A stretch of DNA of 63,775 nucleotides, counting the filler, from Collodictyon triciliatum (taxonomy: Eukaryota), in assembly GCA_043381765.1 (NCBI GenBank). It is 9 parts of 9 records of this genome, joined end to end, with 100 filler letters (N's around TTAATTAATTAA, not from the genome) between each part and the next. Parts side by side here need not be neighbours in the genome. Positions count along the whole stretch, not along the records: positions 52,039 to 59,510 come from JBHJMP010003883.1; 8 more parts are not named here. One strand, given 5' to 3'. Of this stretch, positions 15,073 through 59,652 are shown piece after piece. The stretch's first letter is position 1; each line of letters starts with the position of its first letter. The translations under genes and the position numbers were made by a program. Below the pieces are notes generated by a model. It had not been told where the DNA came from and ran no database searches. It worked only from the letters and a program-made list of their open reading frames with translations.

Positions 15073-15172
15073 NNNNNNNNNNNNNNNNNNNNNNNNNNNN
15101 NNNNNNNNNNNNNNNNTTAATTAATTAANNNNNNNNNNNNNNNNNNNNNNNNNNNNNNNNNNNNNNNNNNNN

Positions 15173-22449: not shown

Positions 22450-22951
22450 CGCATAAAATGATAATAACAATAATAATAATGAAGATAACTATTGCTCATA
22501 ATATTATATTTATCTTTATTATTAGATGAATATAATATCAGCTCATTTTTATTTTTTTATTTTTTATCTTTTATTTTTTATCTTTTATTTTTTATCTTTT
22601 ATTTTTTATCTTTTATTTTTTATCTTTTATTTTTTATCTTTTATTTTTTATCTNNNNNNNNNNNNNNNNNNNNNNNNNNNNNNNNNNNNNNNNNNNNTTA
22701 ATTAATTAANNNNNNNNNNNNNNNNNNNNNNNNNNNNNNNNNNNNNNNNNNNNCATAAAAAAACATAAAAAAACATAAAAAAACATAAAAAAACATAAAA
22801 AAACATAAAAAACATAAAAAAACATAAAAAAACATAAAAAAACATAAAAAAAACATGAAAAACTAAAAGCCCTATCCACCGTTTTTCGCAACGCGACCGT
22901 TCTTTTTCCCCACCCACGCCTGCGATCACAAGTCTTTAAGGAGGACACACA

Positions 22952-27499
<4,548 letters not shown>

Positions 27500-28334
27500 G
27501 TATTTAGAAAATCGATTTTATTGTGTTCTTTGCACATTTCATTGCATTTTTGAATAGTTTTCTGATTTCGAAAGAAGAAAGAGAAAACAAAAAGAAATAG
27601 AGGGAAAAGAGGGAAAAGAAAAGAAAAAGAAAACAAAGAAAGAAGAAAAAAAANNNNNNNNNNNNNNNNNNNNNNNNNNNNNNNNNNNNNNNNNNNNNNN
27701 NNNNNNNNNNNNNNNNNNNNNNNNNNNNNNNNNNNNNNNNNNNNNNNNNNNNNNNNNNNNNNNNNNNNNNNNNNNNNNNNNNNNNNNNNNNNNNNNNNNN
27801 NNNNNNNNNNNNNNNNNNNNNNNNNNNNNNNNNNNNNNNNNNNNNNNNNNNNNNNNNNNNNNNNNNNNNNNNNNNNNNNNNNNNNNNNNNNNNNNNNNNN
27901 NNNNNNNNNNNNNNNNNNNNNNNNNNNNNNNNNNNNNNNNNNNNNNNNNNNNNNNNNNNNNNNNNNNNNNNNNNNNNNNNNNNNNNNNNNNNNNNNNNNN
28001 NNNNNNNNNNNNNNNNNNNNNNNNNNNNNNNNNNNNNNNNNNNNNNNNNNNNNNNNNNNNNNNNNNNNNNNNNNNNNNNNNNNNNNNNNNNNNNNNNNNN
28101 NNNNNNNNNNNNNNNNNNNNNNNNNNNNNNNNNNNNNNNNNNNNNNNNNNNNNNNNNNNNNNNNNNNNNNNNNNNNNNNNNNNNNNNNNNNNNNNNNNNN
28201 NNNNNNNNNNNNNNNNNNNNNNNNNNNNNNNNNNNNNNNNNNNNNNNNACAAACAAACAAACAAACAAACAAACAAACAAACAAACAAACAAACAAACCC
28301 TGCGAATTTTTATCTTTATTTGGGTTCCTTACAT

Positions 28335-29713: not shown

Positions 29714-30330
29714 CTTTGGGGGTTTCTCTCTCGATTTTTCTCTTTCTGACCTTACCTTTTGATTTTTTTTTTTTTTTTTTTGCTGTTTAATACACATGGT
29801 TTCTGGAGTTAGTAAGGTTGTTACATATATATGCTTATGTTCATGAATTTTTTAATTCTAAAATCCACCATAATCTCCTAGTATGCATCCTTAATGATTA
29901 TTTCCCAACATTATCTTGCCATTTATTTGCCCGACTCGTTTCGTTTATTGTCTTTTACTTTGTTCCTTATACAATAGCTGCTTATCACTCTACAAACATG
30001 CAACAGTCATGTTTCTCACTCTCCTGTCCACTCCAAATAATAAAATAATATGGAACTGAAAAAAAGGAATATGGACATGCCTTTCGACACACATATCAAT
30101 ATACCAAAAGAAACATACACAGCAACGAATAAAACAAAATCCTTTTTTTTTTTTTTTTTTTTACGGCAAAAAAAAAAAAAGAAAAAATTCAAAACAAACA
30201 AAAAAAGAAGAGCACCAAAAAAAAGATCGTNNNNNNNNNNNNNNNNNNNNNNNNNNNNNNNNNNNNNNNNNNNNTTAATTAATTAANNNNNNNNNNNNNN
30301 NNNNNNNNNNNNNNNNNNNNNNNNNNNNNN

Positions 30331-30430: not shown

Positions 30431-32451
30431 CTTTTGCCATGTGAATAGTACCCATGCATATATGTAATCGCTAATAGTATGGTTATTTTCTGTAAGTATC
30501 ACTTAAAATAAATTTTTATAAATTTTGATGGGGTTTTATAATGTTTTGTAAATTTCACTAATTACTTCATATGTATCATTCCGCTGTTTTCAATGTAATC
30601 TATCGACTTTTGAGGTACACGTGACATCTTTCTACAAGTTTTAATCATTTTCAACCCTACTTGGTGCATAGAAATGAGCCCAAATTTAGTTTCCGTACCA
30701 AGCTGACCTGTACCCGAAGCCTACTCGTGCTACTACTTTGAAAAAAAAGGCACAGTAACTATGCCAGGCTGTAGAAAAGTACAAAAAACTATTCCTATAA
30801 TGGAATAAAAGGCTTTTGAGCTACAGCATTGTTCATTTCAAATATATAATTGCCTTTGTCATGAATCTCAGTAATGGATTTTAAGAGATGGAATGTCATG
30901 AAAGAGTATAACAATTTTCAGATTCAATCATTTTCCCAATAACAACCAAAAATGAGCAACTGGATAATGAAATATATAGTAAGTAGGCAGTTCAAAAAAC
31001 ATTCAACTTTAGGGCTGCACGAATAAAGGAAAAATACTTTATGGCTCCATAAAATTACCACTGTGTACATAGTTTACTGAATTAAGTGCTTAATTGATGT
31101 TGTTGAATTATTTACGTTCGTGCTCTAGTCAGGTACGCAAAGGTTTTTCTATGGTTGTGTATGAGACACAGAGAAGAAAAGTGATTGATTTGGTATCCAG
31201 TACAATCTGTAGTTCAAGCAAACAATTTCTTTAAGTTTTTCCCCTTTATTCGATCCAAGGGAAGGAAGGATTTTTAGATTTTTCTACAGTCCGACGCGGC
31301 TGTTGTGCTTTGGTTCAAAGCAGTGAGGCGTGTCTATTAAGGGATGCAGGCCAGCAGGATACGGAAGCTGGATTCATGACTCGTCACTATGCAACCGAAA
31401 TGGTCGAGAATAATTACACCTCTAAGGAGCTGCAACTACCAAGGGCCTTGACCTGGATTCGATCACATCGCATTCATGATAAGATAACAGCAACGCCCTA
31501 GTAGGCACGATTAACATCCCAGCGTGCACAAAAAACTCGTAGAAAGAAAAGAGAGCCCCTAAATTGCTTTCTACCCAGCACCAAATTTTAATTCAATACA
31601 TATGTCGAAGTTATATAGTCCTGCCCTTATATGTTTCAGGTTTATATTTTTTTAAAATTTTGTCCTTACGATCGCTTCTAATTATTATGACATGGTTAAG
31701 TGAAGAAAATTAAGTATGGACTACTTTTGGTAGATACCCAATATATTTGAGTTTCGTGCTATGTACACCAGTGCTTTGAGCAGATGGGACAATTGTGCGA
31801 GAATAGAGGTGGTTGCGTACCAAGGTTGTGGGTGTTATGTCTCTGACTTTAGATACACAATCAAAATTTCTCCAATAAGCTAAATTTTGCAGTGCCTTCT
31901 CTTTGTCTATTCATGGAAATTAGAATAAATATGATAGTTTCTTACATTTTGTCTTATGTATATCACCACATGAATTTTTACTTGTATATAATGATGTTGT
32001 ATTGGATTTTTTCTCAACAGCATTTGTATTCCGGAGGCGGAATACAAATGCTTGCTGCACTAGCCAACTACCAGACAAGGAAGTGTTTCTTCCACATAAG
32101 GCTACATTCACAGAACATTTGCCTGGCTCTATGTGGTGCTATTGCTTTCCGTTGGGTAGAATTACTGCGGGGTAGCTTCGTTCTTTTCAAAAACAAAGTC
32201 TGTCAACGAAACCAAAACACCCTTATCATTTTCTATGCGCACCCAAAGTACCCTTCTATCGCCTATCAAATGGCATCACCCACGTGATACCTTTCGGGCA
32301 TAGTAGCAACAAAAACACCCACTGAGCAATACATCAACATATACTTCAATTTTCTCTCCTTTGAATCAAATAAAGGATTTTTTTTTATTTTCTCTTCTGT
32401 ACAGAACCAGGGCTCATTCAATCCGTCTTCGCTTATTTCATTTTTGCCACA

Positions 32452-33533
32452 ATGTCTGGGCAAACTGCGCTCCTTGAAGAGCTACGGAAGATAACTAAGG
32501 ACTTGGATATTCTGGCTCTCCAAAATCGTACGTCGCTGCGTCTTGGTTACAGAAATCTAACATCTGTGCCGCGTGGGGTCTTCGAATTAGATCGCTTAGT
32601 GCGACTTTATCTTTTTTGGAACCAGTTATCGACACTACTGCCAGAAATATCACGCTTGACGAGTCTTCAAGTTCTCGATCTTCGCTTCAACCAGTTGTCC
32701 TCATTACCACCAGAAATTTCGTGCTTGACTAGTCTCACGTTCCTCGATGTTGGTATCAATAACCTGTTGTTGCTACCACTTGAAATATCGTGTTTGACTG
32801 GTCTTGTATGTATTGATATCTATAGCAATCCGGTAATTATTTTTTTTTGTTTATGCAAAGAGGAAAAAAATCATCTAAAAGTAGTATTTCTACAGATCGA
32901 AAAGCTTCCTTCCCATATCACAACGCTCACAAACCTGAAGGAGCTTCGGATAAACGCAGGATTTGGACAGACTATTAAAAAGGCTCCACACGGAATCACA
33001 AATCTCCCATGCTGGAAAAATACAGATAATGAGGATTATAGACATATACGTGCCTTACAACTCTACGCAGTAAGTACCAAAAAAATTCTTATCTAAGAAA
33101 AACATTAAGCATATCAATTATTTTAGTACGCTTTACTTCGATGAGCTTTTGAAAGGAAAAAATATTTTAGGATACACAACAAGTTACACCTCTTACATCT
33201 CTTGTATCTAAAGTGGATGACCAACGGTGCATGTTAGTATCACTAACATCCAAAGTGGATGCACAACAAACTACTCTCGCATCCCTCACATCGCTTGTAT
33301 CAAAAGTGGAGATATTGGAAAGTACACTTGCAGGTTACAAATCCAAAGTGGATATACAACAAGGTACCATCGCCTCCCTTGCATCTATGGTGCAAGAACA
33401 GCAAAGTACTATTGCTTCCCTGGTATCTCTTTTGTCCAAGGTGGATTTAATGATGACTAGAATGAATGACCTAATGCCTCTGATTGAAGAGAAAAAGCCC
33501 AACGCAGGAGTTGAGGGGGTTGACCATCTCTAA
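32452..33533 (+). CDS. Leucine-rich repeat protein with C-terminal coiled-coil repeats, 3 exons
   Basis: Exons 32452-32832, 32896-33069 and 33171-33533. 23-residue LRRs (LxxLDLxxNQLSSLPPEISxL). Tail carries about six xQxxTLASLxSKVD-like repeats. Confidence 0.88.
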
Positions 33534-33685: not shown

Positions 33686-33695
33686 NNNNNNNNNN

Positions 33696-33745
<50 letters not shown>

Positions 33746-34963
33746 CCACTCGTAAAACAAATCAAATTTTTTTTTTACAAATCTAATTAAAATGCATATG
33801 CTTCTAGACCGAGTAACCAGGATCTGAATCGATGTGCTGCAATATCTTTGAATAAAATTCAACTTTCATTTTTAGATGATTTTTTGTTAATTGACTTTTT
33901 TTTTAATACTAGATAGGATAAAATTATTGAATAAGCTACTTTAAAAGTTTATTTAAAAATAATTCAATACAAATGCAATGAATGTGGTTTAATGAAAAAA
34001 TGCTATTTATCAGATAAAAATGTAAAATATATCTTACTTCATCAGAACAGAGAAGGATGAAGTTAAATTTTTTATTCGTTCCAAAGGTGAAGTTATAACA
34101 TAAGCATATAAAACTGTTTATTTCTGTATGAATTTTCAAAAAAAATATAGGATATCAATCACTCTTATGAGTTATTTATATTTTAAGCGATTGAATCTCG
34201 AATCAAATAAAGGGAAAAAATTAAGTTATTGAAAAATAAATTATTCAAAATTTTAGATAATAATTTATTGATAAATGAGCAATCGAGGAAGTGCTTACAT
34301 ATTGATGGTAATTAATACCAAAATTTACTTTAAATTAGTCATAAGGGGTTTAAATCAGAAATAAGACTCACAGAGGTATATTTTAGTTCCTTTAATTTCA
34401 GACAATAGTTAATAGACCTAGTAAAATCCAGTTGATAATATCACTTCGTATTTTTATTTTTTTAATTTTTTGCTGTAAAGATCAAATGAGGGCTTCTTCC
34501 ATTTTTACTTCATTATATTTATGATGTATAAATATTTATTCCTTGACAATTTCGTGTGCGATCATTAATAACTATGCTTGAATATAAAAAAATTGGACTT
34601 TTAAAAAAAACTTTAATTCCTTCTCATCACCAAAAGAAAATAAAGGAAAATCCAGAAATTATTCCACATAAGACAATTTTGTGAATTTACATTATTGCGA
34701 AGCATTTGAATTTTTATCAAGGAAAATGTAGATGGAATGCCATTCTTTTCCTTTAAACCACAATACACTAACAAATTGATGGTGCATCTCTTCTTTTTTT
34801 GTGGTCTAAACAAATGCTCGGTTCTTTATTTACTTGGTACTAGTCTCCTTCGTATGCAACAGCAGGATGTGTTACAAAAGAGTATTGCGGCCTACTAACA
34901 CATTGCTTGAATAACCTGTTCTTGAAGGCCAGAGCTCAACCAAATTGCCTTCAATCTATTATC

Positions 34964-36413
34964 ATGGGTAACACCTTTTCAAGTGATGCCACAATCGAAG
35001 AGTTGAATGACTTCAACCAGGGCAGGGGCGCATCTACCTCCCAAAACCGCACAACACTTGACCTTAGATTGAATAATCTGAGATTTGTGCCGCATAGAGT
35101 CTTTTTGTTCGATAGTTTAGTGCAACTGATTCTTTGGCACAACCTATTACCATCTCTTCCACCAGAAATATCGCGCTTGACAGGTCTTACATTTTTCAGT
35201 GCAGGAAGCAATAAACTATCGTCGTTGCCACTAGAAATATCACACTTGACTGCCCTCAAAGAATTATATGTCCACTACAACGAACTCTCATCTTTACCAC
35301 CAGAAATATCTTGTTTGACACGCCTCCAGAAGTTTTTCGTTCAAGAAAATCCGGTAGTATTTTATTTGCATGTGAAAAAAACATGCCTAAAAATAAATTA
35401 TGCAGATTGAAGAGCTCCTCCCACAAATATCTGCGCTGACGAACTTGAAGGTGCTTTGGATCAAGGGCTATGGAACGCAAATCACTATAAAGAGTGCACC
35501 ACGTGGCATTACAAATCTTCCATGCTGGATCAATAGAGGGAACAAGGATAAAAACCATTTACATGCACTTCAGCTCTATGAAACAGTAAAAAAAATTCAA
35601 TTTAGATTACCAAGAATATTTTTAACAAAAAATAAAAGTAGATCGATTCAGTGAAAAAGCCGGAATGGATTCCAACCGACTTTCAAGTCGGGTTTAAATC
35701 CTTGAGTTTGTATGGAATCTATCTTTCTGAACTACCGAAATGCATTACAATCATGCAGAGCCTGACTTACCTTTGTCTTAAAAAAAATTGCGTAATATTT
35801 TTGTTGGAAAATTAATTAAAATAACAGCGTATGTACGACATTATATTTTGAATGTAAAAATAAAAACCATAATTTAATAGTTCTTTGAGTTTCCTGATTC
35901 TGTTTGTTTGATGCATTCCATTATTCGCTTGGATATATCAAATAATAAGGTAAAGTGTACTATTAAGTAAAACAATGTGTAAATTATACCATTTTACAAA
36001 ATATTTTTTTCATATAACATTGTTTATAATATAAATTAGTTAACCAGGATCCCTCATGCGATCAATCAACTATGCAACCTTGAAATACTGGATGCAACAA
36101 ACAATAGGGTAATAAGTGTAGCAATAATAAGAGATCATCTGTAAAATGGTTTATCTACGTCTTAATTTTCCGGTTTTCTGTTCATCGAATTTTTCTTTTG
36201 ACACGCTTTCAGATTTAGAACTCTTTTATTTTATTTTTGTTTAAATTTTCAATTTTATAGTATTCAATAGCTTTCTATATTAAAAAGATAATCGAACTGC
36301 CAAGATTTGAAGAAAAATTAGGCAGCACCAAAAAGCATGCAGAACTTGAAGCTGAAACGGAGGCTGTGGAAACTACAAAAACGAAACAAACAAATAAATG
36401 TGCACTCTGCTGA
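34964..36413 (+). CDS. Leucine-rich repeat protein, tandem paralog of the upstream LRR gene, about 5 exons
   Basis: Starts MGNTFSS. Shares QNRTxLxL, the LRRs, the NP|IE intron position and APxGITNLPCW...ALQLY with the upstream gene. Further LRR exons near 35642-35790 and 36040-36108; last exon ends KCALC-stop. Confidence 0.8.
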
Positions 36414-38130
36414 TACATTATTCATGACTTGTGTTTTTTTGAAATAAGGGAGAGAACAATTGCATTTCCTCTAAAATTAATATGGTTCATTTTGTTATTT
36501 TCTATTAATTATATCCTACTTTTACATAAAATTAACTTAATTAAAGCATTTTGATCTGAATTAAAAAATTACAAAGATTTATAAAAAATTCAAATGGTAT
36601 GGGTACTTGTTCTGTATAGAACTCTTAAAAGTCAACATTTTAGTAAAATATTCTTGAGCTTGATATTGGACCAATATTACTTCTTGAAATAATAAATAGA
36701 TAAAAGTGGATGATGAAGACTATTTATGGCTAAATAGAGTCACCGCTATATTTCAAGCTCGAATGGAGAGAATTAATCAATCTGAAGTCAGAAAAAAGAA
36801 AAAGTTCTTCAATAAAGAAACGTGCCAATATAATAATTCAAGAAAATCAACCAACTTTTAAGCTGAAATAGTATCTATACTGATATAATGTGCTTAAAAC
36901 AATTGCAATCAAGCAAGCTCTTTAATTGAATAGAATAAAAGAAAGGTTAAAAACACTCAAATTTTGCAAAAATAAAAGAAAGAGCAAAAAGTAAACAAGA
37001 AAAGCTAACATCTATGTCTTTGTTTTTGAAATAAGGTGCTTTATTTCTACGCCCATTTTCACTTCATTTGGATGATAGTGATATTTAGATCTTTTATTGA
37101 TGTGAAAAGTATAAAGACTCTCCTCGGGGAAGGGGGAGGGTAAGGGATATGTTTATATTTGAAGGTGGTGGAGTATGAAGTCTGCAAAATCGATGGTTTG
37201 ATGCGAAGAGAAGATTGGTAGAAAAGACTCATTGACACACAGGTTTAGTATATGATATTGATGAGGATGTTTATTGGTAACATTATATCAATAAATATCG
37301 GAGATTATTGGATTGTGATGTTGCTTTTATGATTCAATAGTACAATAACCACCTTCAAAAGGAAAATGAATACTAAAAGGATCGAATTTTTTTATGATAA
37401 TCTAAGATTTTGTTTAATTGTTATTCAATTAAATTCCACTTTGAGTGAAATAAAAGGAAGACATTTCTTAGACTGAATCCCAAAGACATATTGCAATCAT
37501 TTTCCTCTTATTAGATTCAGAATTAGAGCAAAGACTTCAAAAATCTAAATGTGATTGCTAATCTAAATTTTTAAGTGATTTAGTGATAAAAATAAAATTA
37601 TTTACATTTTATTAAGCAAATAGTGTCGAATGCCAGGTTGTCTGCTTCGTAATTTTTTGTGGAAGTATTTCATACGAAGTCTGTTGATACAATCCTTAAT
37701 AATTAATACATTTCTACATAGAGGAGGGCGAGATGGCCATACGGTCGTTCTCCGGAGGAGGAGGAGGAGGAGGAGGAGGAGGATGGAAGTTGAAATTTGG
37801 TCATTGATAGAATCTATGTTNNNNNNNNNNNNNNNNNNNNNNNNNNNNNNNNNNNNNNNNNNNNTTAATTAATTAANNNNNNNNNNNNNNNNNNNNNNNN
37901 NNNNNNNNNNNNNNNNNNNNTATCTATCTATCTATCTATCTACGAAAAAAAAAGCGTCTGTCTATTCATCGAAACTCATCATGTGTATTACACCAGCTGA
38001 AATGATAAGTGTCCAAGTGCATTGTACATATTTTACACACTCATCACCTTGATTCTGATCCTTTATGTGAATAATTGGGTTTACTTACTCACTTGTAAAC
38101 ACCCTCTGTCTATGCATTGCGCGCTAAACA

Positions 38131-44826: not shown

Positions 44827-45495
44827 ATGTTTGGTAAAGTAATGCTTTTTTTAAAATAAAAAAGAAAAGTTTCGGAATTTTTTTGAGCAGACGCAAAAGT
44901 ATTAAAATTGGATTTTAACGGATTTTCTACACAATACTTCAAGAAATTTACAGTATGGTCATTTCAGTTTGGCCGGATGGCAGTAGTTGGTGGTCTCCCA
45001 TCAGTTAATGGCACAGGTATGGAATGGTGCGTTGTCTCTCGAGCACAAAGTGCATCTTCGGGAAAAGATGAGGTCACTCATTGATCGACGACGATTCAAC
45101 TGCCACTTGGACAAACATGAATTTGGCTTAGGACCCCTCCACTGAATTTCATAATGGAACGAGCACCATCGTTCAGACGGATATCTACTATCTAAGATAG
45201 CGTGTATTTTTTTAGTGGGAAATCATATTTCGTATAAGTGTAGATATAAATGACGGTGTCGTCTCAACCGCGATGAACCCTTGAGGCGCTTCGCGAGCTC
45301 TGAATTGTATTTATATTACATTTTTCCATTTCGCCCTTTTGGGCTGCTACACATTTTCTTGAGCTATCTGAAATCTCTTATTTTTATCCTATTCTNNNNN
45401 NNNNNNNNNNNNNNNNNNNNNNNNNNNNNNNNNNNNNNNTTAATTAATTAANNNNNNNNNNNNNNNNNNNNNNNNNNNNNNNNNNNNNNNNNNNN

Positions 45496-48481: not shown

Positions 48482-50682
48482 CTATATCAGGACGCTTAGT
48501 CCCACAAGCATGCAGTCGATTCCAACAACCAAGACTACAGACATCACGAGGCACAGAAGCCAACCAATAAAAATGACTTTCAACGTATTCCACTTGACCC
48601 GCTCCGTAGTGGTGTTGCCCAGCCCGATTCCAGCTATGGAGCCGACAATCACTTGGGTGGTGCTGATTGGAATCTGAATCAGGTTGTTTATGAGAAGTGC
48701 TATGGCAGCCGAGAGCAAGACTACAAATCCTCCAGAAGGTGTTAACTTAGTGATTGACTCGGCCATCGTGTGCGTCACTCTGGAGGAGAAAAGGATAATC
48801 CCCAGTGCAATAAAAGCTCCGTAAACGAAGATAATCCACATGTCCACATCACCCAACTCATCCTCGCGCGCTTCTCCACTTGATGCGACTTGCAGTAAAA
48901 TAGATAGCGGAGCCGCTGTGTTGGCAACATCATTGGCTCCGTGCGATAGACTGAAAAATGCCGCGCTGATTAGCTGTAAAATGCAGAATATCCTTTCGGC
49001 ACCGAGTCTATCGGCCTATGTAACGCACATTGAAACCTTCGAGGTGAGTTTGGCTTATAAAAGAGACAAGATTTAGCTGGACTAATTGTAAAATGTGCGA
49101 TAAAATAGAACCTTGCGAATCAAATCATCTGATGAGCCATACTTCAGAACATGCGTTGATACAATCAATGATGATTTCTCTATTAGGGGACTAATCCGGA
49201 ATGAAAGCTGTACAAGCCACTCGTGTAGAACAAAGTGTGTCATAACCATGGCCTTAGTGATGATAAAATATTTTTATTTTGAATGAAAATTATTCGTATA
49301 GTCTACAAATGATTGGATTTTAAAAAAGTGCAAGAGATTGATTCACAATTTTGGTCAGGTATATTAATAATGACATTAAGATAAAAATGAGGAAAAGTGT
49401 AAATATTATGTTCATTAAAAAACAACAGCTGTTTGAGAGGTTCGTTTTCTTTAATTTACTTACAATCAGCATTAAACCAAGAGATATAAAAACAAGAAGT
49501 AAGGAAGTAAATTGGTTATCTGCCCCGAACATAGCTAGACCAACATACATCGGAAAGATAAAGAAAGCTATTCCAAACATGATTGGCATGAATTTCCGAG
49601 CTCTCCTTTCGGATACACCTGGTGATATGACGATTATACATTTAATCTGTATGAGCTACATATTCGGAACTAAAGTCAAAGGAGCTGATGCGTAGCAAAA
49701 ATCGCTCAATAGGCGATGAATACAATTAATCATACATCAACACTAGTATGGTGAGAGACTGCTATAGGCACGTAATTATAAAAGTGTATTTTGTATGCAT
49801 GCAATTCAAATTACACAATCTGGACAAGATAAATTACCTGGCTGAAGAATGTATTTAGCCAACATATTTGAGAGAAGATAAGATAGCAAGCCTCCAACCA
49901 AAGGAGAGATTAGCCAAGATAGAACAATGTTTTGCATTTTTGAGCTGATTCCGCCTCCTTGCCCCTATGACGTAAACCACCGAACACAGATGAGTTCTTG
50001 CAAAAAAAATTCTTTGAAATGAAATAAATAGAAATATCTGACAACGTGAACATAATTTGCTTTATTCATACAAACCTCATTAATAAGTGCCATGATCATC
50101 AATGAAGTTCCAGTCACTTGCGTTGTAGAGATAGGTAACTTCCAGTAGCTGAATAGAAATATAATAAAAGAAGAACCAATCATGGTGGACAGAATCCCTA
50201 AAAATAGCAACTTTTCTTCTCCCTGTAAACAATTTAATTAGTGAGAATCTACAAAATATTCTCATTTTGATTGAATTGAAGACATAATAGCTGGAAAGAA
50301 AGATAGAATGACCGAGTTTCGAAACATACGAGCAATTTTGATGAGATATTGACATTTACAATAATTATGATTAATAAATGACAATGATGATAATAGTAAT
50401 GGTAATAGTGATAGTGATAATGTAATAATGTGGCGAAGAATGTGAAACCTCAAAAGCGTCAATATCAACATAAGTAGTTTTTGATGATTTCGTTATTTCG
50501 CGCCCTATTGAGAAAGCGCCAACCAGCTCGAAAAAAACCATGTACCGTGTTGCCGTCTTCATCGACAAAGACCCGCCGCCAACCGTGACTCCGAGGACAT
50601 TAGCTCCATCATTGGCCCCGATAGACATCGCATGAAGCGCCCCAACAATGCATGTGGCTATGGTTAACCCTTCAAAGTACAT
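48482..50682 (-). CDS. PiT/PHO4-family (SLC20-like) inorganic phosphate transporter, multi-exon
   Basis: Both signature repeats present (IGANDGAN and HGANDVAN), two LPISTTQ/IPISTTQ motifs, KLTPSGGF, many hydrophobic helices. Confidence 0.93.
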
Positions 50683-50879
50683 TTTCTGCTGAATACGCTT
50701 GCTCTATTTTGCGAGAACTGCTTCGGCACTAAGGTATTGTGGCCAAAAAAAAAACTTTGAGTTCGAAAGCGAACACAAGAAAAGCACAGTATAATTCATG
50801 TGTTTGAATAAAAAAAAATAATTAAAATTTCACAGCTTCGGGAATGAGCGACGAAAAGCAACATGAGCATCATGTTGTT

Positions 50880-51938: not shown

Positions 51939-52038
51939 NNNNNNNNNNNNNNNNNNNNNNNNNNNNNNNNNNNNNNNNNNNNTTAATTAATTAANNNNNN
52001 NNNNNNNNNNNNNNNNNNNNNNNNNNNNNNNNNNNNNN

Positions 52039-52441: not shown

Positions 52442-55400
52442 TCATCCGTCGTGGTGGTAAGTGTGCCTGTGTTTTGTTGTTTTGTCGGGGCAATTCGGGC
52501 CTAGTCGACATGGAATCATTACTGATGGAAGTTGGATGTGAGCAAAGGCTCTTCTGTGGGCTCGGTCGGTTAGTAAGCTGCAATTCCCTCCCTTCGGGCA
52601 AGGTGGTTGGTCATCGTGATAGAAATCAGCGTGATGCGGATACGCACCAGCATCTTTGCAAAGGATGCCAAAGCGGCAAGGATGGCTGTACTCCTTCGTG
52701 TGGGGGTGGTCCTTGGTGAATTGATAATGGCACGCCTGTAAGTGTGGACAGATTGGTTTGAACTTGTGTCTGAAAGACTCTCTGTGGCTAAGTGTTCCAT
52801 AATCTTTGCAGTGGTATCCATGAATACACTCCGGTGGCTCTTCATGCGCAACGTCGAGGCTTCTAGACCTAGAACCCGAGTGATTGCGGACGTCAGATTC
52901 AGACCGTGTCCCTGATTGTGAAAAAGGAGATAAACCAGGGGTTTTCGAAAAAGGGGTTGGCTTTTCGAGACGTGAATAATGCTCCTCGATCAATTGGTAG
53001 GGAATTTGACCCACAACACGACAGTCGGCAGAGGGTCCCAATGCCAAGCAAGAAACTGTCATTCCAGGTGATATGAGGACAAGTGAAACCCGGATTGAAG
53101 AAGCCACCCATCTCGAGGTAAAACTGAACTCCCTCTTGTTGAAAATATAGCTTGTGCGCCCGAAAGATAGACCGAGTGTATCGCCTTCGATTGTGAAGAC
53201 GTAATTTATAGTGGACGAAGCATCCAGAAACATCCCAAAGTCCTCTTTGACAAACAAAATATCCTTAGACTGGATTGGGGCTGAAAATGTATCTGGAACA
53301 TAACCCAAAAGAGTCAAACTGATAGACCGTGACACATCCACCACTAAGGTCATTCCAAACCCTCCATGCTCATGACTCTCTCCTCCTTCCAATAAAAGAG
53401 CAAAATTTCCACCATGTAGTCCAAACTCTATGAAGAAATTCTGGTGGCAACCATCTCGAATAAAGTTAATTCGTTCTTCAACTTCCGAACTCCTGAAGGA
53501 TAAGCCGCTCTGAAGGAATGGAGGACAGATTAAGTCTCTTCCTGGGGAGCCAGAAAGTTGTTGGCGTCTAGGTTCCTTGCCGTCTATTGTGACACGAATA
53601 CCATGAAAAGCGCTTGCAATTAAGACAGCCTTCATTGCATTCAACCCATAAGAAAAATCCTAGCCGAATAGGAAGAGAGAATGATTAATAAGGGGAAAAA
53701 GTGGGAAATAAGAGGGAAAAATATTCATGGGTTATAAAAATATAAAAATAAAATAAAACTAAAAATATAATAATACCAATACTAAAAATAGCAATAATAA
53801 ACATAAACATAAACATGTTGCAAGAAAAAGAATCTATTAATTGACATGTTGAATTTTATAACTTTGAATGCACGCAAGACAGTACGCGGTCACTTATAAT
53901 ACCTGCTGTAAAATAACTTCATCGACATACCCCGGCGGCAAGCATGAGTTTAGAGAACATCTTATCCTCTTCCTATCATTCGTTGCCATAATTAGTCCAA
54001 CTATTTGCTCCTTTGTGAGTCTCTCTGAACTCTCTGTGGAGATAATATTTTCGTAATGATGGACCATGTGACTGGTCAAATCTCTGCATATTGAACTGAG
54101 CATAATGTAATGTCCTTGCATCTCGATAGGTTTAGTTTCTTGTCCTGGAATAAGCATGACAGTTTTTGGGTGCATCAGATACTCTTTTTTGAAAATTATT
54201 GTGACATTTTTTTTACCCTAAAATAGTCCCAATGAGTAATCAATCATAACACATAAATAACAATATTCCAATAAATTTAACTATTTTTCTTTTAAAAATG
54301 TATCATGCAAAAAAAAAGTAAAATATACAATGGGTCCATGTAATTCGCATGTCAGTGATTTGAAATCAAAATCTCTTTTTTTCGTTTGAATACGGACTAA
54401 TAAATCAATGTAGAAAATTGCTAATTCTTTTAGTAATGTCACCACGTTAATGGGTAACTTCATCTCATTCAAATATTCGGATAGCTTTTGAAAGCCATCC
54501 TCATTTGGGTGATTTAGATGTACATTTGCTGCCTGAGAATAATATGATATTCTTGATAATAACGATTGATGAATGAATCCCTTAATAAGACTCCATACTT
54601 CACAGGGATTTCGTGGAAAATATCTACCAATTAAATGTGACAGGAAAGCAAATCCCTCTACAAGATCAAGGTCGGCCACATTGGTTGCCTCATCAAAGTC
54701 TTTAAAGATAGAGAATGATTGAAATACTAGAAATATGTCCAGCAAGTTCGAATCAAGGTGCAAAACAGGCCTTGAGCTCTCGATTATTTCCAACAAGATG
54801 TCATACGTCTCTGAGGTTTGTGGGCTTGGGTGATGTGTTTTTTGAAGACTGTGTTCTACAAGTGTATCATAGTTGAAAGTTGCCTCTTTGAAGCATGAAT
54901 GTGGGATTCGCGGGGTATAATGTGCAAACTCTGACAAATGAGCAAATGATAAATCGACACAGCTCATTTCTTGGGGGCATTTTTTTCCAAAATTTCCCAG
55001 TCGATGATCAAATTGATTTCCGTGATGGATATTATAAAGCAGCTGTTTGCATTTGTATGAAGCGTCACACTTTGGTAGGTATATATGAATGTACCTAGAA
55101 ACATGAGCTGGATTGTCCAAACTATCACAGAGTTCCCCTTTTTCACAAAGGTGGCTTAAATTCGAAGAATGTGTAGGAGAGTTAATTTCCTTGCATTTAA
55201 GCAAGTTGGGACATACCGGGGCGAATGGGTGTGTATGTGTCTGCATGTGCAAAGGGTTTGAAAAAAAAGTGCAAAAAACACCATAAGGACACTTCTGTTT
55301 GCAGTGACGAAATTGAGATTCATGCTTTGCTGATGACTTTTTGTCACATAGGGTGCCATATGCACACCTTTTCCGGTGCCAAAAAAGCATGGCATGATTC

Positions 55401-58400
55401 ATATCCTCCATGCTGCAGTCAGCTTCATTGGGGCATGTAATTGGATGCAAAAAATATTTATCGTGTACCTCTTCCACTATCCTATCCAAGCACAGCCCTC
55501 CTTTAGGACATGCAATTCGGTGCTCGAATAACGTGGTGTGCATAACGCTATCTAATAAAGGACAGTTAGATTTTTCTGGACATTCTGGAATGATCCAATC
55601 TCGATCGTAGAAATCAAAAATTCCTTTTTGAAGCCGGTCTCGCTTTGCGTTTTTGTTCTCATAGAATGCGGTGAATGGCACTGTTTTAAGGGATCCATAT
55701 GTCGAGTCAATTTTCTGTAGTAAAGCTTCGTATTCTGAGTGAGAGCTCGAATTTTCAAGAAATATGTGTATTTCATCAAAGTGGTTGTAATATGACCGAA
55801 GTGATTCCAAAAGAAACTCCGGGTTGTGAGGAACTTGTGTTGAGCGATCGTACGTTCCAGTTACAATCAGATGCGTGCAACCAGACTTTGCTAGTTCATG
55901 CATCATAAATTCAACCTTTTCACGAGAGAGGATCAAATCTAGGTTATCTGAGATATCTTTTTTGTCGATATTTGAGCACCTTAAGCGTGACATGAAGAGA
56001 AGAACATTTATTTGGTCTTTCAGGTACTGGTAGCCTTTGACAATATCATCTCGAAAGATGCAAATATCGATTTTATACGTACAGTTTCCCAGAGAGTCTT
56101 TGTTAACATTAGAAATCCTCTTATTCATATCTGTAGGATTTTTACACTCACGAAATACATGAGACAAGTTCGACATCCGAGTAAGCTCCTGTAAAAAGCC
56201 TTTTGATGCAAGAATTTCCGCTGCTGGAGGAAACCCTCCCAAATCGAGGATACCGATCCTCTTCTTCTGCCTTTCAAGATTTCGTATGACAGGAAAAGCC
56301 GACCAATTCTGGATTTGAATAGGACCGCGACGATGAGCTTCTTTAATATCTGGCCTTGACAAGATTTTGATACATTCCATACTTGCTGGGTTGACCTTTT
56401 GAATGTTTCCAAGCGAATTTATATACTCTTCTTTGTAAAGTGTGCTAAATGATCGAACGAAGGAGAAGTACTGAATTAATTGCCTAAAATTCCTTGGCAA
56501 ATGACTTTCAAGATCTTTATTATTGAGAATTTCGATAATGAGCTCATGGTCCCAAGGATAGGATTTCAGGTCAGGATTTTCTGAAAGGCCTAGTGAACGC
56601 TCCAGATCCAATAGCAAATCCATAAAATATTTTACTGTTTCTACTCGAATCCGTCGAGGATTCGAGAAGATCACACAGCCACTACTAAGGGTGGTCGGCT
56701 TTATAGTATTTATCTTTTGGACTTCATGGCTGGGCACCAGAATGTATATTTTGTCTTTGTCTCTTGATACATGGCCAAGCTGATATGAATCTAGGTTCAT
56801 TTGTGAAGCTATATGGCTGTCCAGAACATCTAATTTCTCCAAATACTCTACAGACTCAGTTTTTATACAAAGAACAGCTGGGTGGTTTGGGAGAACTTGA
56901 ATTGGAAATGAGTATATCTGGTTCAATCTGTTCAAAACTGTCATAATAGACTGCAAACATGTTGTGTAAACCTGCAAAAGAAAGGGGCACTCTTTTTCAA
57001 TTAGAGAGAACTCATCGCCGTCAATAATCGATGCGACATCATCAGTTGAATCGAATCTCGATGAATTTGTATAAAATGTCAACGAAAATATATCAGAAAA
57101 AAACATAGTTGCTTCTAATTCTGGCGATTTGCCGTACGAAGCCTCTGTGTGTGTTTCTCTAAACAAATTGATTGATGAAGGTCGGCAATAATAAGATGAA
57201 ATCGACGAAAACGCGGTATGATGATGGATTGGAGGAGAATATTGAAGAGGATGGCTCTGCAGCACTTTCCAATCAGTAGAAGACGTGACGAACGAAACTC
57301 TAATTGGATGAGCTGGGTAAACATAGCAGTTGTTGATCGGGCGGTTATGATATTCAGCTACAAATTTACAAGCCAAGATTTTGTCCTTGGTGCTCAGAGC
57401 AACGATGCAATTTTGATGTGGTATTGGGATAAGATCGAAAGAACTATAAGGCGGATTCAAGGAAAATTCCTTGAATGCCGTGGCATTCTCACCAACGAGG
57501 TAAATAGTTGTGGATAGTGTATTATGGCTCATATGAGGTAGGAATAAAACTTTGTAAGTTGCCAGTCTTGTCTTCAATATTTCTCCAGAGAATATTAATT
57601 TTACCAGGCCACGAGGTGCAGAAAACAGTACTCGAAAATACTTGTGATCTTGGTTATATATCACGAGATGATAGCCAAATCTTCGTTCCAGCTCCATCAA
57701 AACTTCTTGGCGATGAACTGGAGGGACATCCTCAACAGAACAGAAAATATAGCCATCATTTTGCAAATGAATGTCTACAGTGGTAGCAAATTCTGCGAGA
57801 ATAATATGTGGTATTGTTTAACTGATTTTTGCAAAAATTTGTCACTTAGTATATTCAAAAGAATTTAAAGTAGACGTTAGACAAAGAAGTGAACCTTTCT
57901 GTATTTCTCCTAAATTATTTCTTTTGTGAGAGACAGGCAAATTATTAAGTGGCAAAATTGTCACGATATTAAAATAACTACCTATGCTGTTGGCGACTGT
58001 TTGGCGAGCAGACACGGAATTAGCATAATTTTCTTGCAAGGGATCACCCTACGTAGATTAAGAAGACCGGAGTCATTCTTTCGAGCCATATTTTACGCTT
58101 TTTTTTTTTGGATTGATTTCGCTTGATTAAATTCTAATATGCAAAAAAAAAAAAAAAAGAGAACAAAAAGAAATTAGAAAAAGAGGCAAAATAATTCGGT
58201 CAGAGGATTTACATTTAACCCATTAATTCTACATTTAGCTATCTTCTTGATCCTTGGAGCCTGAGTATCATGAACGACTAATGTCCTGCTATTGGCAAGA
58301 TAAATAATGTTCGGGGGAACATCGAGCAAATTGCAGTGTTGCTCATCTGAATCCAGGGCCATAGTAAACATATCCAATATGTCGATGTGAGGAATACTAG

Positions 58401-59436
58401 TATCCTCATGTTTGAATAAGAACAGAGACGATGACGGTGAAAGCAATCCACAAATGGCATAGTCATACACCACGAACTATGTAGCATAAAGAAAAAAGAT
58501 ATGGCTCGTTAATCAAGTCGAAAAATAAGCTATTTGACTCGCAACGTTTTAATTGAAAACACTATCCTTAAGAAGACATGTATCCCTTCATTTTGTGCTT
58601 TGGCTAATGAGAATTTGAGAGGCTTTTTTTACTTTGCCTTTTGTATAAAAAATTGTAAAAAATAGAGACAGACGCACAGGTGCATGGTTGCTGTTCGGAT
58701 TGGTCAGGAATGAAGTCATCTGAAGGAACCCGTCTGTGGTTGTGGCGAAGAATTCTACTCCTGGATATACAGGTGGGCCGATAGGAACAAATGGAATATT
58801 GATTACATTTGAAATCAAAGTGACCATGCTCCCCCGTTCTTCAGTCCAGAAAGGAGATAAAACTCCGAAAATCACTGGGAAGATACGAGCTATGCGATCC
58901 ATTGGAATGACCTACGCGAAGAATAAGTAATTGAGATGTAATGAGCAAATGAACGGGGAATGTGAGAGTTGAAATAGAAGTACTTTGCATCATAAAAGCT
59001 ACGGAATATTATTTAGTTGTATCAAATCATCCTGCTAATGAAGGATAAGGACTCAGTAATTCGAAACATTAATGCCATGGCATTACGCTGGATAACAGGT
59101 GGGTAGTTGAAACATGTGACGCCGTATAGGGAGAAATATTACGTTTCTATCACAGGTTGAGAAGATGCTGTTCGTAGACGTCACGACGGAGAAAAGCCCT
59201 TTGATTGAGGGGCAAATCTGTGGGGCCGGTGATGTGCACACAATAGCTCTGTTTTCCTTTTCCATGCACCGCGCAAGGTGGGACTGGAACGTGGTTGCTA
59301 CTACCGGGGCATCACGGGAGTAGGCCGGGACGATCAGGAATCGATCAGGCATGTCAGGATCCATGCTAGGTTTTCTTCCCTTTTTCACTTTCTGCAGGTT
59401 GATTTTTTGCAACTTTTTCGGCGGGTCGCTATTCAA
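52442..59436 (-). CDS. Paralog of the 274-7112 gene: degenerate PARG-like macrodomain + 9 PBZ-type fingers + degenerate ART-like domain + beta-rich domain + 5 C-terminal PBZ-type fingers
   Basis: Core exons about 57792-54329, 54217-53903 and 53659-52442 join in frame through GT-AG introns. Upstream exons from 59436 can be joined in frame (tentative). VTIIFKKEYLMHP aligns with ITIIFKQELLYHP of the first gene. CCHH arrays at 54920-55582 and about 52450-52828. Confidence 0.82.
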
Positions 59437-59462
59437 AGGTGTTTTTTTGTTTTTTGTTTTTT

Positions 59463-59510
<48 letters not shown>

Positions 59511-59652
59511 NNNNNNNNNNNNNNNNNNNNNNNNNNNNNNNNNNNNNNNNNNNNTTAATTAATTAANNNNNNNNNNNNNNNNNNNNNNNNNNNNNNNNNN
59601 NNNNNNNNNNACGAAAACCAAAAACCAAAAACAAAAAAACAAAAAACAAAAA

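Follow-up and report, generated by a model that had tools for sequence, protein, structure and literature searches.

Does a gene in which both enzyme-like domains have lost their catalytic residues still code for a protein, and what would such a protein do? This question is raised by a locus at 52442-57817 (minus strand), called the second gene here, in a stretch of 63,775 nt from Collodictyon triciliatum (the window), which was joined from 9 parts with filler in such a way that adjoining parts are not necessarily neighbours in the genome. A paralog at 277 to about 7100 on the same strand, called the first gene, served as the comparison copy, and further family proteins are numbered P00xx. The family combines a microbial-type PARG macrodomain, an array of PBZ-like zinc fingers with Cys-Cys-His-His (CCHH) ligands, a domain of about 340 residues with a predicted ADP-ribosyltransferase (ART) fold, and a C-terminal domain. 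The initial annotation had described the second gene as a double pseudo-enzyme, and this description stands, as both enzyme-like domains have lost their catalytic motifs. From the sequence comparisons, we hold it to be somewhat probable that the second gene is a coding member of the family, in which both catalytic centres are gone, and that it acts through its fingers as a non-catalytic binder, scaffold or competitor.

The second gene has an uninterrupted reading frame in three exons

The window is eukaryotic; its introns are short and of the GT..AG type, and its G+C content varies between about 26 and 52% over 2-kb windows. All coordinates of the second gene and the first gene refer to the minus strand. 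For the second gene, three stop-free frames were found at 54284-57817 (1178 codons), 53897-54217 (107 codons), and 52445-53659 (405 codons), 1690 codons in total, and the spliced model of three exons comprises 1673 codons. Exon A (54329..57817, open from 57817, 1163 codons used) contains the N-terminal region, the degenerate PARG-like domain, nine fingers, and the start of the ART-like domain, and it ends at 54329 (..LHGPI, donor ATT|GTATAT). Exon B (53903..54217, GKKN..ILQQ) contains the second part of the ART-like domain, and exon C runs from 53659 to 52442, including the stop codon. The two introns (54218..54328 and 53660..53902) were joined by reading the DNA, and both are of the GT..AG type and in phase 0. 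The first gene has introns at the identical two protein positions (..LGPNK|GHYYG.. and ..IIMPK|NIYDSL..). The second gene contains no in-frame stop codon, whereas the two alternative frames on this strand contain 60/83, 7/5, and 16/13 stops in the three exons, respectively. Thus, two claims of the initial annotation, that the reading frame is intact and that the architecture matches the first gene, were both supported, the latter by the shared domain layout and the common intron positions. The annotation had extended the gene over 52442..59436. The part from 52442 to 57817 carries the open frame, and the remainder, from 57818 to 59436, has no significant similarity to the N-termini of the relatives. 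Candidate 5′ exons in this region (57818..59436, with an ATG at 59362-59364) are unverified and consist of open reading frames only.

The first gene (277..7100) has exons at about 7100-6939, 6695-6447, 6165-5959, 5725-2069, 2032-1652, and 1509-277, in which 5725 is the upper limit of the open frame of the large exon. Its one close relative in the databases is P0007, a protein of 1864 amino acids from the transcriptome assembly of Diphylleia rotans, with 39% identity at 98% coverage. At least three further 5′ exons of the first gene (5959-7100) match residues 7-60, 59-141, and 154-224 of P0007, and therefore, the start of this gene is near 7100 and not in the large exon.

Both functional loops of the PARG-like macrodomain are lost

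No Pfam domain was recognised in the second gene, and PF10021 had no hit at E <= 1. The first gene was matched by PF10021 at E 4.6e-7 with 30.8 bits (cut-off 23.5). Profiles of the PARG and the ART domain were generated from the clade without either of the window genes. The PARG profile matched the first gene with 136 bits and the second gene with 20.4 bits (E 1.5e-6), the latter only in the C-terminal half of the domain (residues 555-688). In the full family profile the degenerate microbial-PARG-like macrodomain of the second gene is collinear and spans 55598..56377 (codons about 481-740). Common descent of this domain is indicated by the clade profile, by the collinear placement, and by a BLASTP alignment with the first gene that begins within the macrodomain (577 versus 598). 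A search of the ESM Atlas with the PARG-like part of the second gene returned no usable match.

In PARGs, the catalytic loop carries two glutamates, and the main chain of a Gly-x-Gly-Val-Phe loop grips the pyrophosphate, according to the available excerpt of PMC6445106. Both loops were analyzed. The catalytic-loop pattern GGG-x(6-8)-QEE is missing from the second gene, in which the remnant at 56183..56239 (GGFPPAAEILASKGFLQEL, versus PGGGYxxGxxAQEE in the family) reads P-AAEILA-SKGFLQEL. The initial annotation had stated that GGFGQEEDL of the first gene has become ASKGFLQEL. The latter motif is present at 56183-56209, and the catalytic residues are lost, as had been claimed, but the family profile shifts the register by two residues; it aligns PGGG with PAAE and places F-L-Q into the QEE columns. 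Neither register yields a Glu-Glu pair or the loop glycines. The diphosphate-loop pattern G-C-G-A/V-F is also missing, and the remnant at 55832..55867 (IVTGTYDRSTQV, versus LGCGAFxNPP in the family) reads TGTYDRSTQV.

The corresponding motif of the first gene is PGGDYKVGGFGQEEDL (4016-4063), and its catalytic loop in the family-profile alignment is PGGDYKVGGFGQEE, so that the QEE is kept. The diphosphate loop GCGAF is absent, and NPFVNLGNRE is found at 3677-3706 instead. The same is true for P0007, which also lacks GCGAF (DGFLEDRKSPYP) though it has kept the QEE loop. Therefore, the copy taken to be active is possibly not an ordinary PARG, and the view that the first gene is a clear-cut active enzyme could not be upheld.

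The domain behind the fingers has a predicted ADP-ribosyltransferase fold, and its triad is lost in the second gene

The family domain that follows the fingers is characterized by the conserved motifs P-x-H-R-C, GTNxHVFSILGP, G-x-Y-Y-G, H-P-D, and E-x-H-L-P, and it has no match in Pfam or the PDB by sequence. When the part of P0007 behind the fingers was used as a phmmer query, 63 of the 114 other representatives were matched at E <= 0.01. All three exon translations of the first gene were matched, and none of the three of the second gene.

The structure of the domain was predicted with AlphaFold for residues 1236-1579 of P0007, using 41 aligned sequences (predicted local distance difference test, pLDDT, 93.0; predicted template modelling score, pTM, 0.89). 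Comparison of this model with 48,161 chains by VIA-align yielded eight top rows that were all enzymes with an ART fold, i.e. OspC3 (Z 12.5, root-mean-square deviation 3.6, 205 aligned) and a second entry of OspC3 (Z 12.2), CopC (Z 12.3), SopF (Z 11.9), and four entries of DarT (Z 10.5 to 9.5). The first unrelated row had a Z of 7.3, and Tpt1 followed with 6.9 and 5.8. The alignments of OspC3, CopC, and SopF to the model comprised 197-218 residues. The ESM Atlas returned only leads below the threshold for the P0007 domain (the best at 0.87, and at 0.86 a cluster with 33% of its members annotated Shigella_OspC). Partly helical models can reach Z values of this size by chance; the fold was assigned because the eight top rows share one fold and cover nearly the whole model. 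Based on this model, the post-finger domain of the family is an ART fold similar to OspC3, CopC, SopF, and DarT. A PARP domain (PF00644) was also considered and was rejected, as it had neither Pfam nor structural support. PARP was absent from the top 50 rows of VIA-align, a rank list that does not decide the matter by itself.

Nearly invariant His, Tyr, and Glu residues are located in or beside the strands 45-49, 213-217, and 313-316 of the P0007 model, a mapping that refers to strand positions in the model and not to a residue-level superposition. Their order is that of the triad of the diphtheria-toxin class. The excerpt of PMC9239266 describes an H-F-E triad of this class for CopC, which is similar to the H/Y(F)/E triad of the family. 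Of 47 family proteins in which all three positions are covered, 41 have kept the triad, and the other 6 show a partial loss. The identification of the post-finger domain as an ADP-ribosyltransferase thus agrees with both the fold of the Diphylleia model and the His/Tyr/Glu triad.

The first gene has kept the triad, and its motifs are PVHRC (2582-2596), GHYYG (2018-2032), and PELHLP (1700-1717). In the second gene the three triad positions are Leu, Lys, and Arg. The first part of its degenerate ART-like domain (54329..54892) contains PVLHL (54755-54769) in place of PvHRC. In the second part, G-x-YYG is replaced by GKKN (54206-54217), HPD by HPK, and xExHLP by IRCSLN (53948-53965), and the profile aligns viEghLP with RIRCSLN. 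The family-profile alignment therefore bore out all three replacements that had been proposed by the initial annotation, i.e. PVHRC to PVLHL, GHYYG to GKKN, and the catalytic Glu of PELHLP to the Arg in IRCSLN.

The zinc ligands of all fourteen fingers are intact

The second gene encodes nine central PBZ-like CCHH fingers (54911..55591) and, after a diverged C-terminal domain in the first part of exon C (52838..53659), for which the match to the family profile was not significant (E 0.058), five C-terminal PBZ-like fingers followed by the stop codon (52442..52837, finger block 52445-52837). The number of 14 fingers was thus confirmed, and all of them contain C, C, H, and H, i.e. 56 zinc ligands. 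A tblastn search of the window with residues 1832-2132 of P0008 matched 53275-52445 at E 5e-23, and the C-terminal finger cluster has 35% identity to that of P0010 (E 1.7e-25). The fingers have x5 spacings at both ends, and the middle spacing is x6 in three, x7 in eight, and x8-9 in three of them (canonical C-x5-C-x6-H-x5-H). A profile of the 24 fingers of the window matched both PBZ fingers of APLF (2KQB, 2KUO) at E 1.4e-8, and the next hit was the CCCH protein TTP at E 0.011. Because the APLF match is far above the next hit, the fingers of the window can be called PBZ-like. In the second gene (P0001, P0003) the Pfam profile PF10283 had no hit at E <= 1, and single fingers of relatives exceed its cut-off (for example, P0053 with 29.8 bits and P0028 with 27.9 bits).

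The first gene has 10 central fingers and no C-terminal cluster, and compared with it the second gene has lost the first central finger. The annotated nine central fingers were therefore counted correctly for the second gene, but they are not the full set of the first gene. The proposed expansion of the finger set was rejected. The Diphylleia paralogs P0008 and P0010 have a layout of 10 central and five C-terminal fingers, P0013 has 10 and four, and central and C-terminal fingers are both present in 21 of 43 family proteins of more than 1200 amino acids. In view of this shared layout, we read the C-terminal cluster as ancestral and as having disappeared from the branch that led to the first gene and P0007, so that the second gene would not have gained fingers.

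Relatives and history of the two window genes

Among 28 relatives scanned first, 14 had PF10021 listed, 13 of these above the curated cut-off, as had 9 of a further 18. When 28 family members were combined into a profile, its hits were the PARG structures of Thermomonospora and Deinococcus (E 1e-29 to 1e-27) and the fingers of APLF, and no other chain scored below E 0.9. For the second gene, a word-indexed search and a scan of metagenomes each found no relative. An exhaustive HMMER search yielded 115 proteins at E <= 0.001, the best with 28% identity. In nearly all of these proteins the aligned region lies across the fingers, and in the top two it extends over the second half of the macrodomain as well. 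Two single relatives align over longer regions in BLASTP. P0010 aligns with residues 745-1182 of the second gene (787-1233, E 7e-30), through the first part of the ART-like domain, and P0013 in one collinear alignment with residues 746-1642 (989-1962, E 1.5e-40), from the fingers to the C-terminal fingers.

Loss of catalytic residues is not confined to the second gene. In P0010 and P0013 (transcriptome assembly) the PARG loops are degenerate and PF10021 is not hit, but the ART triad has been kept. P0011 (1269 amino acids) has canonical PARG loops (AGGGW..AQEE, LGCGAF) and has lost the triad at all three positions (V, T, S). Taken together, pseudo-enzyme forms arose more than once in this one family, with a dead PARG in P0010 and P0013, a dead ART in P0011, and both in the second gene. 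Fusions with further domains were found for GBP and VWA (P0025), Roc-COR-LRR (P0089), RING and RanBP (P0066), and WWE (P0018). The fungal protein P0074 (Jimgerdemannia flammicorona, 436 amino acids) has PBZ-like fingers (PF10283 at E 0.002, below the cut-off) followed by an ART-like domain, about 45 residues of which seem to be left out of the gene model. The model of this domain, with these residues missing, had no Foldseek match. In the available excerpts of two reviews, PBZ is described as not found in fungi (PMC13720257; PMC4245714).

Within the window, matches to the family occur only at the two loci. The large exons of the two genes align with 26% identity over 461 residues (BLASTP, E 9e-35), exon B over 15 residues only, and no alignment was found for the last exons. 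This pairwise alignment characterizes them as distant paralogs. When 22 family proteins were placed in a tree (LG+G4, quick search, 1540 columns), both window genes and the four Diphylleia proteins grouped into one clade with a support of 100. The first gene pairs with P0007 (support 100) and then with P0008 (91), and the second gene joins P0010 and P0013, with a terminal branch of 3.1 versus a median of 0.7. This grouping is supported by the collinear BLASTP alignment with P0013. The approximately unbiased (AU) test rejected the two window genes as sisters with a p of 2e-5; the placement of the second gene was already that of the best tree. As judged from the tree, the first and the second gene are ancient paralogs. 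The decay of the PARG-like domain, shared with P0010 and P0013, probably predates the split from Diphylleia, and the decay of the ART-like domain is read as specific to the second gene, with an independent triad loss in P0011.

The divergence of the second gene is not uniform along the protein. In an alignment of six sequences, its identities to the relatives are 28-33% for the central fingers (36-38% for other paralog pairs) and 35-38% for the C-terminal fingers (43%), whereas they are 14-19% for the ART-like part (35-36%) and 12-16% for the C-terminal domain (25-26%). The open frame, the intact introns, and the 56 conserved ligands fit purifying selection on the fingers and the frame, combined with a lost or changed constraint on the enzyme parts.

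Explanations for a gene with two lost catalytic centres

If the second gene is a coding, non-catalytic family member, selection would have kept its frame open. Since the PARG loops and the ART triad are both lost, the protein would most likely neither remove nor add ADP-ribose. Its fingers would bind, and the protein could thus be a scaffold, or it could compete with its catalytic paralogs for a shared ligand or target. We infer that the protein is made, that both folds persist, that the fingers have a ligand, and that the role is that of a scaffold or competitor. By analogy, a function as decoy, sensor or scaffold, which the initial annotation had suggested, is plausible.

Several results weigh against this explanation. 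The ART profile scored the second gene with only 8.8 bits (E 0.006), compared with 332 bits for the first gene. Outside the fingers the second gene is therefore near the detection limit, and its macrodomain and ART folds are putative. The fold assignment itself was not reproduced by Foldseek, which found no ART match for the P0007 model at E <= 0.001; its top ranks were SopF (E 0.06, probability 0.96) and OspC3 (E 0.097). With regard to the ligand, the contacts of APLF to ADP-ribose are Tyr/Tyr/Arg, according to the excerpt of PMC6264785, and they were translated into an aromatic residue at C1+2, an aromatic residue at C2+1, and a basic residue at C2+2 of fingers with a strict pattern. All three contacts were found in none of the 11 strict-pattern fingers of the second gene and in none of 737 in 117 family proteins; in the remaining three fingers of the second gene they were also absent by eye. 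As Tyr/Tyr/Arg fingers are missing, poly(ADP-ribose) is no more than a possible ligand. The position of the second gene in the tree, at the end of a long branch, has a support of 90 and is unstarred, and no relative closer than 28% identity was found, so that none was suited for the ratio of nonsynonymous to synonymous substitutions (dN/dS). Lastly, the first ATG of exon A is only at codon 41 (57697), and the 5′ end of the gene model is tentative. A tblastn search of 57700-59500 with the N-termini of relatives and the 5′ exons of the first gene gave nothing convincing; the best match had an E of 0.008, in a frame that is continuous with no gene model. The sole hint for a start is RKPSMD at the ATG at 59362-59364, which resembles RKPRMD at the start of the first gene.

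The main rival explanation is that the second gene is a pseudogene or an unexpressed relic, in which the enzyme domains have decayed and the open frame is left over. The extreme divergence, evident from the terminal branch and from the lack of any recognised Pfam domain and of any relative above 28% identity, is in line with such a relic, as is the lack of recognisable 5′ exons and of an ATG where exon A opens. However, neutral decay down to identities of 12-19% would fill 1690 codons with stops, and not a single one was found, compared with 5-83 per exon in the other frames. In addition, both introns have kept GT..AG and phase 0, all 56 zinc ligands are intact, and the finger identity is at the level of the family. 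A relic would be compatible with these results only if the gene had died very recently, and a recent death leaves the old divergence unexplained. Therefore, we regard a relic as unlikely.

Another explanation would be that the two domains have been re-tooled, either to non-catalytic readers of ADP-ribose or NAD+ or to another reaction that makes use of non-canonical residues. The frame is open across both domains, the His and Pro of HPD remain (HPK), a His is located one residue past the lost triad His (PVLHL), and partial loss of the triad occurs in other members as well (6 of 47). Nevertheless, none of the elements by which solved PARGs hold ADP-ribose (excerpt of PMC6445106), i.e. the glycine-rich loop, the Glu-Glu pair, and the diphosphate loop, is present, the three ART triad positions are occupied by unrelated residues, and the profile scores are near background. 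Re-tooling is thus quite improbable.

The initial annotation had proposed a recently duplicated active/inactive pair, in which the second gene gained fingers and now serves the first gene as decoy or sensor, comparable to PARP13/ZAP. The genes are on the same strand, 45 kb apart along the joined window, they share architecture and intron positions, and the first gene has kept QEE and H/Y/E, but we consider this to be very unlikely, because sisterhood is rejected by the AU test and the partner of the first gene is P0007, C-terminal fingers are common to P0008, P0010, and P0013, the first gene has no PARG diphosphate loop, and there is neither a PARP catalytic domain nor a CCCH type of finger, all fingers being CCHH. 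The analogy to the PARP family also failed with respect to the domain itself, as no Pfam PARP was present in 53 scanned proteins and exon translations and the nearest folds are those of OspC3, CopC, SopF, and DarT.

Relation to known systems

PARP13/ZAP has a PARP-type domain and CCCH fingers that bind RNA. The likeness to the second gene exists in concept only, i.e. a protein of a transferase family with a degenerate triad that acts through zinc fingers. In contrast, the fold predicted for the family is of the OspC/SopF/DarT type, the fingers are PBZ-like and CCHH, and the second gene contains an additional dead PARG domain.

The closest known architecture is that of the bdelloid rotifer Adineta vaga, for which a bacterial-type PARG with PBZ repeats has been described (Perina et al. 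2014, PMC4245714, crediting Slade et al. 2011). It shares with the present family a microbial-type PARG that is followed by repeated PBZ-type fingers in a eukaryotic host, and the family itself has a rotifer member, P0066 from Didymodactylos carnosus (PF10021 and PBZ). The available excerpt of that description does not mention a transferase domain, whereas the present family adds the ART-fold and the C-terminal domain, and the second gene has, in addition, lost the PARG signature. Thus, the PARG-PBZ architecture is already known from Adineta vaga, and what is new is a family member with both catalytic centres gone. The ART-like domain of these proteins was not described in the literature searched, which did not extend to the review on ART diversity by Aravind et al. 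2015.

The best structural matches of the ART-like domain are bacterial effectors, i.e. OspC3 and CopC, which are arginine ADP-riboxanases, and SopF, which is an ADP-ribosyltransferase. Unlike these, the family is eukaryotic. Its domain is fused to PARG and fingers, has no match to the effectors at the sequence level, and is interrupted by a helical insert (residues 70-183 of the model, about 110 in all), and the triad is gone in the second gene. DarT and DarG, a DNA ADP-ribosyltransferase toxin and its macrodomain antitoxin, resemble the family not only in the ART fold (Z 9.5-10.5) but also in the pairing of a writer with a macrodomain eraser. DarG reverses the action of DarT. In the family both are fused in one eukaryotic protein, and the macrodomain is of the PARG type. 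The tandem PBZ fingers of APLF (2KQB, 2KUO) share with the family fingers the C-x5-C...H-x5-H spacing, a Gly that follows the first Cys, and an aromatic residue that precedes the last His. However, most family fingers are one residue longer between the second Cys and the first His, and Tyr/Tyr/Arg is lacking.

Writers, erasers, and readers of ADP-ribosylation are usually separate proteins. The family would unite all three in one polypeptide, with a writer whose nearest folds are bacterial effectors and toxins, and no description of an OspC3/SopF/DarT-like transferase writer was found for eukaryotes in the literature searched. A tentative further interpretation is that the clade forms a single-chain eukaryotic writer-eraser-reader system of ADP-ribosylation in cell-autonomous conflict or immunity, in which the second gene would be a reader-only derivative that regulates or antagonises the catalytic paralogs, or a decoy for targets or effectors which these encounter; we regard this wider view as possible, though rather doubtful. 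In any case, the second gene could serve as a natural separation-of-function allele for finding the ligand of the finger array and for asking whether the array acts alone.

Neighbouring genes and other features of the window

Between the two paralogs, the plus strand carries a GTPase of the GBP type (PF02263, with E values of 3e-14 and 8e-17) and two LRR genes, at 23991-24769, 32374-33093, and 34844-35407. Together with the fusions of the relatives, these neighbours hint at an immunity-type gene neighbourhood. On the minus strand, an exon of a small GTPase of the Ras family (PF00071, E 8e-13) is located at 11121-11474 and a phosphate transporter of the PHO4 type (E 2e-43 and 1e-10) at 48485-50703. 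A scan of the window with Rfam gave no match.

The window also contains eight pairs of N runs, each run being 44 bases long with 12 bases within each pair, at 7489-7588, 15073-15172, 22654-22753, 30231-30330, 37821-37920, 45396-45495, 51939-52038, and 59511-59610. They recur about every 7.58 kb, beside simple repeats, and are not biology. Further N stretches are a gap of 595 bases at 27654-28248 and a run of 10 bases at 33686-33695.

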